This document shows, piece after piece, positions 1 through 2,821 of a stretch of DNA of 64,000 bases (position 1 is the first letter of the stretch; each line of letters starts with the position of its first letter). Source of the DNA: a virus. Under the pieces are notes generated by a model, which saw only the letters and a list, made by a program, of their open reading frames with translations, did not search any database and was not told the DNA's origin. The DNA lies in IMG/VR virus record IMGVR_UViG_3300024999_000044, positions 1-64,000 of that record. One strand, 5' to 3'. Both the position numbers and the translations under genes were made by a program.

Positions 1-401
1 TCAGGCTTGGTACTTTAATGCCAAGCCTGATAAGTATATACAAGTAGTGGGTTATAGAAGTGAGACATTGGCAAGATTTCTAACAAATTGTCCAAAAGAG
101 AGGGTCGTGATCAATATTGATCCACGACCCTTTAAACAATAGAAGAAGTAATCTCAGAATAGTGACCCCACTAGAAAATTCTAGACATAAAAACAGATCT
201 CAAGGCCACAATAAGAGTGGCATGCCAGGAGTAACATTTAATAAGAATGATAAAAGATGGAAAACGGCGTTATCAGTTAATGGTAAGGAATTATATATTG
301 GGTATTATAAAAATTTATTAGAAGCCTGTAGAGCATGTAATTTAGCAAGAATAATACATTATGGGAGTATAAATGCCATACGTAATTCTATTAAAGTTTA
401 G
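1..401 (+). pseudogene. HNH-AP2 homing endonuclease remnant: 5' partial at window edge, with an apparent 1-nt frameshift near 125-130
   Basis: The frame-3 ORF 117-401 encodes the end of an HNH_3 motif (IHDPLNNRRSNLRIVTPLEN) plus an AP2 domain (GVTFNKNDKRWKTALSVNGKELYIGYY). Frame 2 is open from nt 2 to about 137 (…CPKERVVINIDPRP) and would be continuous with frame 3 after a 1-nt deletion. Confidence 0.4.
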
Positions 402-421
402 ATACGCTGGGGGGAATACCA

Positions 422-727
422 TTGAAAAAGTTTTTAGAGAAGTTGGAAGAACATAACCTTAAATTAAAGCTAGAGCCAGAAATAACTGAGGCTACTCGTA
501 TGTTTAGAAGTATGAGGAAAAAGTACAGAAGTCTATTAGGCGTAAGAGCATTAATGCTCAACCCAACCGAACAGGAATCCAGGGTAGTGTATATAGAAAA
601 AGTCTACAACAACTTCTTGGTGGTATCTTACGGATATTATGGCATTGAAAACACTGGTAGAATTAGTACTTGCATACTTTATTCATCTCTAATAACAGGA
701 GAGTATGGGCTGGTGATGGAAAAATGA
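422..727 (+). CDS. hypothetical protein (TTG start)
   Basis: ORF track entry; G-rich RBS upstream. Confidence 0.35.
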   Translation: MKKFLEKLEEHNLKLKLEPEITEATRMFRSMRKKYRSLLGVRALMLNPTEQESRVVYIEKVYNNFLVVSYGYYGIENTGRISTCILYSSLITGEYGLVMEK

Positions 728-1263
728 GTTTTATCGTTGATACCGAAGTCTTATTCCAAAATTATGAGCCACTGCGTAAAGCAATAGTTAAAAAATTTAG
801 CCACATGATGCATAATAACTCTGACAGGGAAGACTTGTTTAATTCCATAAATCTGATGTTTGTTCAATTAGTTAATGAGTATAACCCAAGGCGTGGGGTG
901 GACTTCCCCTACTATATAAAAAAGATGTTGGAGTTTAGGGTGTATCATCACATTAATAAGTATTTAAGAGTGGTTAACAAAGAGACCTGTGAAGACGATT
1001 TCTCATCCCATGATGCAGGTTATTTTGAAAAGGACATACAGCATGTGTTGGATATGATGAGCATAGATCCTAATATAGTGCTGGGTGAAAAGCACAGGAA
1101 TTTAATGATAGGTACCATAATAGATAAAAAGACTTTAAAGGAGTTAGCGGATGAGGAAGGAATATCAGTGAATAAGCTCCACGCCAGGTCCTACTTTTTG
1201 GGTATAAAATACCTAAAAGAATATAATCGTCTCATAGAGAGATATGGTCCAGACTTGTATTGA
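724..1263 (+). CDS. sigma-70 family sigma factor, phage-encoded
   Basis: A region-2-like segment (DLFNSINLMFVQLVNEYNPRRGVDFPYYIKKMLEFRVYHHI) and a C-terminal region-4 HTH (LKELADEEGISVNKLHARSYFLGIKYLK). Start taken at MSFIVDTE, inside track ORF 670-1263. Confidence 0.55.
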   Translation: MSFIVDTEVLFQNYEPLRKAIVKKFSHMMHNNSDREDLFNSINLMFVQLVNEYNPRRGVDFPYYIKKMLEFRVYHHINKYLRVVNKETCEDDFSSHDAGYFEKDIQHVLDMMSIDPNIVLGEKHRNLMIGTIIDKKTLKELADEEGISVNKLHARSYFLGIKYLKEYNRLIERYGPDLY

Positions 1264-1958
1264 TCTTACCAGGAGAAAACTTTTTGGTGTTCGGTTTTTT
1301 GAAAGTGTTCGGGGGCGGTCACAAGTGCAAGACGAAAGGTGTACGGGGCTGATGCCCTAGGCTGAGTAGCAAGTCCAAGTTTGACACGCTCCTGAGCCCC
1401 ACAGCCAGTAGAGCACAAAGAGAACTACTGCCCGATAAAGGCGATAAGGTGCTATGAAGACTAAAGACACGTGTTATAACCTAATGGTGCCTAACCACCA
1501 CCTAAACTTTAACACAATAATAGCTAAGTGGGGTGGTCACCAACCTTATGCAGCCCTAAAATTCCCGTGTGGTCAAGACAGTAGTTCGATAGTTCGTGGA
1601 CAAAACAACGCTACACCTCTTCCTAGATCCAGTAAAGCAGGGTGTAGTCCGCAAGGTTGTCAGTACCCAACCTGACGTAAAAGACGAGTGTGGTGGACTT
1701 ACAAGCCACAAACCGACGAGTGGGTGGAAAGCTCACAAGTGCTCTACACTAATAGCCTTTTCTAACCACCAAGTTATTTATATAGCTTCGGAGAATGGAC
1801 CTTGATAGTGGTTTTAAGGGGTCCCGTAAGGCTACACGCGAGTGAATGGCCCATTCCTACTCAGACCAAGCAGTAGCCATAAGGTGTAGGAAGTTGTTAG
1901 ACTTAAACTAACTACCTTGGAGGGGCAAGGTTAACCTCCTTATTACTAAGGAGGCATT

Positions 1959-2399
1959 ATGGGAGGGCATAATAGGAAAAAGTTAGAATTCTCAATAAAT
2001 GAGAATCTGTGTTTTACAGTGATATCACATAAAATAAGGAGTGATGGATATGCTCAATTATTCATAGAAAATAAACTTACTCTTGCTCATAGATTTGTTT
2101 ATGAGCAATGTTTTGAGGAAATCCCAGAGGGTCTTGTAGTTAGACACACTTGTGACAACAGAGCGTGTATAAATCCAGAGCACTTAGAGCTAGGTACCCA
2201 TATTGATAATATGGGAGACATGGTACTACGTGGAAGATCTATGAGAGGACAAAATCATACAAATGCCTCTTTAACAGAGGAGGATGTTCTCAATATAAGG
2301 GCTAGTGAATTAACCCAAAAGGAGCTAGGACAAAAATATGGTGTAAATTTTTCAACCATAGGTAAGATAAAAAGGCGTGAAAAGTGGAAGCATATATAA
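1959..2399 (+). CDS. HNH homing endonuclease (HNH_3 type)
   Basis: Motifs YAQLFIENKLTLAHRFVYEQ … VVRHTCDNRACINPEHLELGTHIDNM. AGGAGG RBS. Flanked by long structured noncoding DNA. Confidence 0.75.
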   Translation: MGGHNRKKLEFSINENLCFTVISHKIRSDGYAQLFIENKLTLAHRFVYEQCFEEIPEGLVVRHTCDNRACINPEHLELGTHIDNMGDMVLRGRSMRGQNHTNASLTEEDVLNIRASELTQKELGQKYGVNFSTIGKIKRREKWKHI

Positions 2400-2703
2400 T
2401 TAGGCACAGTTATCCTTAATTATGATACCAGGTTAAGCAGTCTAGTGACTGCCCAGTGCAAAGCTGAGAAGAATTGGGCCTATAAGCGTTGTACAGCGTT
2501 AAGTAGGACGGCTTGGTAAGCGAGGACCTGTGCGTTGACACCTCAGGTACTATTTAAGCTGGACCTAGTCAGTGGTGAGTGAAAGTGTTAAGTGTATGGC
2601 ATAATAGATTTTTGTGCATTGAGGATCATTATCACCAACCTTCTACAATTCCCACAATCTGGTATCATAATTAAGGGTAGCAACTACTATATGTGAGAGG
2701 TTC

Positions 2704-2793
2704 TGAAGTTAGGTTCGACTCCTACACGCCCTCTTAATGAGGGCGTCAGTTACTACACATAAGTGGCGGTTGAAGTTAGGTTCGACTCCTAAC
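2704..2793 (+). repeat. two direct copies of a tRNA T-arm-like motif (TGAAGTTAGGTTCGACTCCTA) flanking an 8-bp-stem hairpin (ACGCCCTC-TTAAT-GAGGGCGT)
   Basis: Copies at 2704-2725 and 2771-2793 carry the same TTCGACT T-loop as the tRNA-Met at 3982. No complete cloverleaf could be built around either copy. Confidence 0.35.
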
Positions 2794-2821
2794 CTACCCT
2801 TATTACATAAACTGAGGAGGG

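Follow-up and report, generated by a model that had tools for sequence, protein, structure and literature searches.

A probable stable-RNA/tRNA island invaded by a homing endonuclease between the sigma factor and SPFH genes of a groundwater phage

What is the noncoding DNA that surrounds an HNH endonuclease gene between the late sigma factor and SPFH/Band 7 genes of the virus recorded as IMGVR_UViG_3300024999_000044 in IMG/VR? We address this question in a window that comprises positions 1 to 64,000 of that record (64,000 nucleotides [nt]), for which the initial annotation had offered three options: remains of a decayed transfer RNA (tRNA) cluster with an inserted homing endonuclease, a group I intron-like RNA, or small RNAs. 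The approximately 700 and 420 nt of noncoding DNA described there are borne out as 695 nt upstream (1264-1958) and 422 nt downstream (2400-2821) of the HNH gene, both without a conserved open reading frame (ORF). The interval is probably a phage stable-RNA/tRNA island that contains two independent structured RNAs, here denoted RNA-U (upstream, approximately 1303-1750) and RNA-D (downstream, 2410-2801), and that has been invaded by a homing endonuclease. It is the option of small RNAs that fares best: both flanks are conserved, structured RNAs, with the plus strand indicated by the fold itself for RNA-D and presumed from the neighboring genes for RNA-U.

The comparison with a sister phage is central to this reading. 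This phage, represented by ten contigs that are nearly identical among themselves (L146-L155), was found by a protein search with the sigma factor as the one closer relative by that protein (73% amino acid [aa] identity). The synteny of gene 33, the sigma factor, approximately 1.8 kb, a small ORF and the SPFH gene (64% aa identity) is shared. The flanking genes are approximately 73% identical between the two phages at the DNA level, and adjacent genes overall fall in the range of 50-80%. Conservation of the flanks in relatives had been set beforehand as one test on which the initial reading could fail, and the noncoding RNA blocks are kept in the sister phage at 85-98% nucleotide identity: 86% at 1407-1462, 85.5% at 1552-1752, 92% at 2400-2830 (RNA-D plus the start of the next ORF), and up to 93-98% in single 60-nt windows. 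The segment 1753-2410, which consists of the HNH ORF and its 200-nt leader, has no counterpart in L146. Identity is distributed as a mosaic in which high and low values alternate over tens of bases, with conserved helices located between unalignable tips, and it declines within 100 nt upon entering the ORFs on either side; this pattern fits selection on RNA rather than one recent tract of gene conversion.

The alignment fold of RNA-D consists of 132 pairs, all of which are standard pairs in both phages. Among these, 21 pairs vary, six through double (compensatory) changes and 15 through one-sided changes via G·U, and none is broken; when the partners were slid by 1-3 columns as a control, 35-47% were paired, with 0-2 double changes. 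The double changes are confined to two hairpins, one at 2528-2530/2544-2546, which accounts for three of them, and the other, denoted S2, at 2726-2746. The fold reaches -124 kcal/mol on the plus strand and -87 kcal/mol on the minus strand (z of -9.4 versus -2.0 relative to column-shuffled alignments) and includes 19-20 G·U pairs. This strong strand asymmetry, together with the G·U pairs, implies that RNA-D is an RNA read on the plus strand, and we model it as a conserved structured RNA of that strand. The initial description of the flanks as rich in stem-loops applies, for the single sequence, to the downstream flank (z of -4.3) but not to the upstream one (z of -1.7); on the two-phage alignment, both flanks are unusual (z of -9.4 downstream and -6.8 upstream).

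The 5' domain of RNA-D (2410-2680, plus strand, approximately 92% identical to L146) is bounded by an inverted repeat, the arms of which form P1, a 25-bp stem (2410-2434 with 2656-2680) with G·U pairs on the plus strand as its sole imperfections. Four one-sided changes in P1 all keep pairing, and the stem closes a 220-nt multi-hairpin domain with about eight hairpins. In an internal loop of RNA-D, at 2514-2526, the sequence GUAAGCGAGGACC resembles the core of the sarcin-ricin loop, GUACGAGAGGACC, at 11 of 13 positions; the sister phage has GUAGGCGAGGAAU, which differs at 4 of the 13 positions, so the likeness is probably due to chance.

The 3' part of RNA-D is predicted to form a pseudo-symmetric double T-arm tRNA-like element of roughly 125 nt (2673-2801, plus strand; fold z of -3.8) that is recognizable by an exact repeat. 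Its parts, in order, are a1 (AAGGGTAG, 2673-2680), body A (a stem-loop or inter-unit helix, 2683-2701), UGAAG, T-arm A (2709-2725, TTAGG-TTCGACT-CCTAC), then a2', a loop and a2, which constitute the closed 'acceptor' hairpin S2 between the T-arms (2726-2746), body B (2749-2767), UGAAG, T-arm B (2776-2792, TTAGG-TTCGACT-CCTAA) and a1' (CTACCCTT, 2794-2801). The two direct copies of TGAAGTTAGGTTCGACTCCTA that had been noticed at the outset are exact (2704-2724 and 2771-2791; no match to this 21-nt repeat in 100 shuffles), and the 8-bp hairpin reported between them is indeed perfect, with ACGCCCTC (2726-2733) paired to GAGGGCGT (2739-2746). The further claim that the repeat is the exact T-arm of the phage tRNA-Met has to be narrowed to the loop: the 7-nt TTCGACT is common to both, but the stems differ (GTAGA/TCTAC in tRNA-Met versus TTAGG/CCTAA or CCTAC in the repeat). 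Each repeat has the 5-bp stem and the 7-nt loop of the TTCRANT type that define a T-arm, and these are kept in L146 with a G·U change. The S2 stem survives three double changes, from ACGCCCTC/GAGGGCGT to ATACTCTC/GGGAGTAT, while its loop goes from 5 nt to 2-4 nt.

The two units of the element, A and B, align with each other and, judged by sequence, are clearly duplicates. In both units, an acceptor-type strand is accompanied by a body of 23-24 nt, which can fold into a 6-bp stem topped by a 7-nt loop; the two share their 5-nt 'variable loop' and their T-arm, and a D-arm is missing from each. The acceptor strands are exchanged between the units: the strand 3' of T-arm A has the first strand of unit B as its partner, making the closed hairpin S2, and the strand 3' of T-arm B has the first strand of unit A (AAGGGTAG with CTACCCTT). 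As a result of this swap, each T-arm abuts a 7-8-bp helix in the geometry of the acceptor/T-arm minihelix, that is, the 'top half' of a tRNA; one of the two predicted minihelix copies is open-ended and the other is closed by a loop. In the minimum-energy fold, body A pairs with body B, resulting in two three-way junctions linked by a central helix. The element is not a canonical cloverleaf: neither ARAGORN nor the Rfam tRNA model calls a tRNA here, just 23-24 nt separate the acceptor strand from the variable loop, and each acceptor strand pairs with one of the other unit. To our knowledge, a tRNA-like design of two T-arms with swapped acceptor strands has not been described before. We put forward only tentatively, as a doubtful proposition, that the element represents a type of phage RNA not seen before, in which a central helix joins mimics of two tRNA top halves into a pseudo-symmetric whole, and that RNA-U and the P1 domain are two further new large RNAs.

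Because the 3' arm of P1 ends in the 8 nt of a1 (2673-2680), a1 has two alternative pairings, and the main rival explanation starts from this overlap. Under this explanation, RNA-D acts in cis as a leader that governs how the operon of the 62-aa ORF and the SPFH gene is translated, and AAGGGUAG (2673-2680) switches between the 5' arm of P1 and CUACCCUU (2794-2801). With a1 held in P1, the freed CCCUU would pair with the Shine-Dalgarno sequence GGAGG (2817-2821) and shut the ORF; in the tRNA-like fold, perhaps upon binding of a factor that recognizes tRNA, the ribosome-binding site (RBS) would be free. None of the three switch segments differs between the phages, pairing is retained through three changes in the 8-bp extension of P1, no terminator separates RNA-D from the 62-aa ORF, and the gap between them is just 20 nt. 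Furthermore, the alignment fold predicts a candidate anti-Shine-Dalgarno helix (helix 17; CCCTT at 2797-2801 with GAGGG at 2817-2821, within 2797-2824, plus strand) that is invariant in both phages and overlaps both a1' and the RBS of the 62-aa ORF. However, this helix has only 5 bp and on its own folds no better than shuffled sequence (z of 0), and pyrimidine changes opposite G always keep pairing, so the changes in the P1 extension are weak proof. Moreover, 390 nt with a closed domain of 220 nt far exceed the needs of such a switch, and close SPFH operons of other phages lack such a leader. We therefore regard the leader as unlikely, although it is the strongest competitor of the island.

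RNA-U is a structured noncoding block (approximately 1303-1750). Two long-range helices (1411-1416/1739-1744 and 1422-1430/1579-1587) enclose a conserved core of hairpins (1610-1619/1640-1648, 1658-1663/1672-1677, 1693-1699/1704-1709 and 1720-1725/1731-1736) with freely variable loops; the 5' part (1303-1406) and the segment 1463-1551 vary between the phages. The Alifold structure has 69 pairs, with seven double and six single changes and no broken pair. By eye, a further stem seems to be present near 1305-1395 in both phages, with a different sequence in each. Among the three noncoding blocks of the region (the third is described below), neither paralogy nor complementarity rises above the level of shuffled sequence, so the lack of significant similarity or complementarity between RNA-U and RNA-D indicates two RNAs and not halves of one; RNAduplex runs of RNA-U with RNA-D gave full-length duplexes that have no meaning and are uninformative.

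This independence bears directly on the second rival, that the flanks form a self-splicing group I-like intron with the HNH ORF in a loop. The precedent is I-HmuI, the HNH endonuclease encoded in the group I intron of the SPO1 DNA polymerase gene. The window phage is SPO1-like (Herelleviridae-type), as indicated by homologues of its sigma factor that include those of Bacillus phages Shanette and SP82G, and thus the type of phage lineage, the endonuclease superfamily and the location of the ORF between structured RNAs are all shared with the I-HmuI case; in addition, another ORF takes this position in the sister phage. In contrast to the I-HmuI intron, the island has neither an intron core nor an interrupted gene. 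No Rfam intron model matches at E<=10 in 1200-2900 or at E<=1 in L146 (8400-13400), and nothing is split. The late sigma factor ORF (724-1263, plus strand; Pfam Sigma70_r2, 1.5e-7) is complete and, as initially noted, ends normally, its homologues being 179-197 aa long and covering 95-100% of it; downstream, the 62-aa membrane ORF (2822-3010, plus strand, with ATG at 2822) and the SPFH/Band 7 gene (2970-3869, plus strand) are both intact, each with its own RBS. The two blocks fold independently, each closed by its own helices, and in the sister phage the supposed loop contains a tRNA gene as well as a pseudo-tRNA. The intron explanation, and with it the corresponding option of the initial annotation, hence appears extremely improbable.

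The HNH gene itself (1959-2399, plus strand, 146 aa) is intact, as had been stated: its HNH_3 domain is whole (residues 42-85; Pfam, 6.2e-12), PHROG HNH families match down to 1e-30, and a helix-turn-helix match is found at the C-terminus. It combines an intact His-Me finger with a DNA-binding module, lies between genes and is present in one relative but absent from the other, as is typical of free-standing homing endonucleases; outside the window phage, its nearest relatives reach no more than 55% identity and are ordinary HNH genes of phages or Bacillota. On these sequence features, it is an ordinary free-standing homing endonuclease in a cassette-like insertion, with homing as its presumed activity. 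It occupies the sole variable spacer, beside the most conserved DNA in the neighborhood. The leader of the cassette (1753-1958, plus strand) is lineage-specific, without a counterpart in L146, and in the predicted fold the Shine-Dalgarno sequence of the gene, AAGGAGG, lies inside a perfect 8-bp hairpin (1935-1942/1947-1954). This hairpin would keep the gene translationally quiet; sequestration of the RBS by a hairpin is a known mode of control of homing endonucleases of T4 and other phages (PMC2988022).

A second HNH gene, at the start of the window, is a frameshifted HNH-AP2 pseudogene (1-401, plus strand). The remnant reported initially is real and spans two frames, with the switch at approximately 117-142, but it is truncated by the window: a further assembly of this phage, L023, shows an 86-aa ORF that begins 118 nt upstream of the first window position and stops at 142. 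The second frame (117-401) contains the C-terminal half of HNH_3 (7e-4) and an AP2 domain (1.1e-4). The HNH-AP2 gene is missing between the ligase and gp33 genes of the sister phage L146. The first 30 nt of the window form a palindrome, TCAGGCTTGGTACTTTAATGCCAAGCCTGA, with first bases unlike those of the L023 assembly, probably a fold-back artefact at the contig end. Elsewhere in the window, a UvrD-type helicase gene (12518-15769, plus strand) contains an intein bearing a LAGLIDADG endonuclease domain; an intein and two HNH genes make this a phage rich in selfish elements.

In the sister phage, the interval between the sigma factor and SPFH genes has no HNH gene; where the HNH cassette would lie, it contains a 113-aa ORF with a HIRAN domain, a tRNA-Asp and a pseudo-tRNA, and the 5' arm of the long stem occurs twice. 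The two copies of this 23-nt arm of P1 (L146 9578-9602 and 9760-9784) surround a 160-nt insert, the pseudo-tRNA, which has a tRNA-Leu-like D-arm and a T-arm and is not called by the tRNA model; the segment 9578-9765 has the appearance of a module whose insertion duplicated the junction.

The content of the interval is relevant to the third rival, namely that the flanks are what is left of a tRNA cluster and have no function, their high identity resulting from recent endonuclease-driven gene conversion and not from selection. The T-arm-like repeats, the pseudo-tRNA in L146 and another one at 4513-4586 in the window, and the dissimilar tRNA content of the two phages are in line with this possibility, as is the known ability of homing endonucleases to co-convert flanking DNA (PMC2988022). 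It is contradicted by the mosaic of 93-98% segments between unalignable ones, which is not a single tract and declines within 100 nt at the ORFs, by the absence of the HNH gene from the sister phage, by the maintenance of pairing in all 27 variable paired columns, including six double changes, and by the strong strand asymmetry. We consider this explanation improbable. The corresponding initial option survives in part: the region is one of variable tRNA and tRNA-like content into which an HNH gene has been inserted, but its tRNA-like parts are not decaying, given that they are 92-100% identical between the phages, versus approximately 73% in the flanking genes, and show compensatory changes.

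If the interval is a stable-RNA island, as we favor, the variable spacer between RNA-U and RNA-D would be the site that takes up cargo, which would be the HNH gene in the window phage and the HIRAN ORF, tRNA-Asp and pseudo-tRNA in the sister phage. The island would be co-transcribed with the flanking genes in a long plus-strand transcript, a suggestion made because no terminator-like site parts the plus strand of the island (1264-2821), except for a weak one within the HNH ORF. Host RNase III would cut the long stem P1, and RNase P or RNase Z would cut at the open acceptor/T-arm minihelix; these cleavages would release stable RNAs, among which the double T-arm RNA would mimic the top half of a tRNA. 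The HNH enzyme would cut nearby in relatives that lack the HNH gene and would thus be inherited along with the conserved RNA genes. Matches to the SPO1 middle or late promoter consensus were not found at the island; the AGGAGA at 1272 is followed by just six T.

Known RNA families were sought with 4227 Rfam models, across the whole window at the gathering score and, with permissive E-values, in 1200-2900, 3870-5400 and L146. At the gathering score, tRNA-Met was the only match in the window, and at E<=10 the segment 1200-2900 yielded chance-level matches only, with no group I or group II intron, transfer-messenger RNA (tmRNA), tRNA, GOLLD, ROOL or Y RNA among them. ARAGORN identified no tRNA or tmRNA in the flanks and just the tRNA-Met (3982-4056) in the window, and neither program detected the combination of a tRNA-like domain and a tag frame that characterizes tmRNA. 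The covariance models of GOLLD, ROOL and the other families likewise gave no hit, and for Y RNA (YrlA) there was no Rfam match and no TROVE (Ro60) domain in the 13 window ORFs that were compared with Pfam. In a set of 50,697 phage records, megablast produced no match and blastn produced matches to HNH-coding sequence only. Searches of IMG/VR with exact and degenerate RNA motifs and two scans of GTDB genomes (one per species) returned no matches, and a scan of JGI metagenomes for the pair of GAAG-T-arm motifs returned nothing beyond the sister phage and one unrelated pair of tRNAs. The IMG/VR relatives found through SPFH or the sigma factor (L001-L022) have a different synteny and no similarity to the flanks, and three more SPFH relatives have no noncoding leader upstream of the gene. 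RNA-U and RNA-D, then, match no known family and are found in two lineages of one habitat.

Several of these observations weigh against the island as formulated here. Only two lineages carry the RNAs, so the covariation comes from two sequences and the structure was predicted from the same two. Phages with equally close SPFH genes, or with close sigma factor homologues, do without the island, which is therefore not needed for those genes. The alignment fold of RNA-U scores almost equally on the two strands (z of -6.8 on plus and -6.2 on minus) and does not tell them apart. Within the double T-arm element, the inter-unit helix and both stem-loops are invariant between the phages, so that the comparison favors neither alternative, and, according to the models, the tRNA-like fold may be only one state, since a1 has two partners. 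Finally, we infer the transcript ends, the processing and the stability of the RNAs throughout.

Elements of comparable architecture occur elsewhere in IMG/VR. Two GGTTCGANTCC T-loops at a spacing of 35-60 nt were found at 113 distinct sites, and in 12 of these a perfect 7-bp stem surrounds the two T-arms (L035, L037, L046, L051, L058, L067, L070, L072, L089, L111, L117 and L123; also L057 and L129), compared with 0-4 in the controls. Six of the eight loci checked by ARAGORN are located in the tRNA array of the contig; at both sites examined, the element lies in a gap between called tRNAs, and four loci also have a closed hairpin that abuts the first T-arm, as in the window. The likeness is one of architecture rather than of demonstrated homology; with such uncalled nested elements in the tRNA arrays of unrelated phages, the class could be widespread.

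With respect to known systems, the closest parallel is found in T4, where segB lies between tRNA genes, and T5, with the F-Tfl homing-endonuclease ORFs in its tRNA cluster (PMC2330249); SegB-type endonucleases are strongly enriched beside phage tRNA genes (PMC13096335). As in T4 and T5, the endonuclease ORF of the window phage occupies a spacer between conserved RNA genes and is missing from a close relative, its translation start is in a hairpin, and the tRNA content of the neighborhood varies between relatives. Unlike SegB, which belongs to the GIY-YIG family, the window enzyme is an HNH protein with presumptive homing, and its flanks are mostly two large RNAs of no known family. The double T-arm element resembles the tRNA-like domain of tmRNA, the 3' tRNA-like structures of plant viruses and YrlA Y RNAs (PMC4201824) in that it places a canonical T-arm, GGTTCGAYTCC, on a 7-8-bp acceptor-like helix, lacks a normal anticodon arm and forms part of a larger RNA. 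It differs from these top-half mimics by having two T-arms and exchanged acceptor strands, one 'acceptor' being closed by a loop, by lacking a D-arm and an encoded CCA, and by the absence of any Rfam match to tmRNA, Y RNA or tRNA-like structures in 1200-2900. Processing stalks for RNase III are formed by the stems of rRNA operons and by hairpins of the phage T7 early transcript. P1 is similar to them in being an approximately 25-bp, nearly perfect stem made by sequences that flank a structured RNA, beside tRNA-like elements in what would be one transcript; in contrast to the rRNA stalks, the 220-nt RNA that P1 encloses is neither rRNA nor a known RNA, and cleavage of the stem is presumed.

The window derives from a phage of approximately 141.8 kb that has been assembled several times from groundwater metagenomes, and the other assemblies are 100% identical to it across the island region. 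Upstream of the sigma factor gene lies a complete homologue of SPO1-type gene 33 (422-727, plus strand; Pfam Phage_Gene33, 9.6e-20). Neighboring proteins of 391 and 444 aa have no Pfam or PDB match that hints at RNA biology, and the former has no relatives in IMG/VR. GC content was not useful as a discriminator, since the genome average is already 42%.

Downstream of the SPFH gene, the tRNA-Met (3982-4056, identified by both ARAGORN and Rfam) is followed by approximately 1.3 kb of further noncoding DNA. This third noncoding block (4057-5382, corresponding to L146 11788-12905) is 82% identical between the phages, which is above the genes. It includes the pseudo-tRNA at 4513-4586, with a short anticodon loop and tRNA model scores of 28.2 bits (29.4 bits in L146), a T-arm-like GGGUGCAACUCCCACCC at approximately 5007-5025, and, at 4769-4787, a copy of the tRNA-Met 3' end in inverted orientation. 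Two other loci of the window stand out. An 832-aa ORF (9691-12189, plus strand) matches the shoulder domain of the major vault protein (1.8e-26) and, at 1.6e-6, a vault repeat, and belongs to no PHROG family; this vault-like ORF, unusual for a phage, is located 6 kb from the SPFH gene. The 730-nt gap at 41691-42424 has no ORFs of at least 70 aa and the highest GC content in the window (50-53% versus 42%), and yields no Rfam match at the gathering score.

Phage tRNA regions are now viewed as anti-defence loci, with homing endonucleases as the elements that reshuffle them (PMC13096335). The locus described here would be a phage tRNA region made mostly of conserved RNAs other than tRNAs. For annotation, the lesson is that an HNH ORF amid structured RNA is not necessarily part of an intron. 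If the double T-arm RNA is stable and processed, it would represent a new way for a virus to imitate tRNA, and it would provide a concrete object with which to test what the non-canonical tRNA-like genes do that occur in the tRNA arrays of phages. A host factor that reads the acceptor/T-arm minihelix, such as a defence nuclease that cleaves tRNA or an enzyme of tRNA processing, could be titrated or misdirected by a mimic of this kind, and it is our speculation that the element acts as a decoy or sink for a tRNA-recognizing factor of the host.

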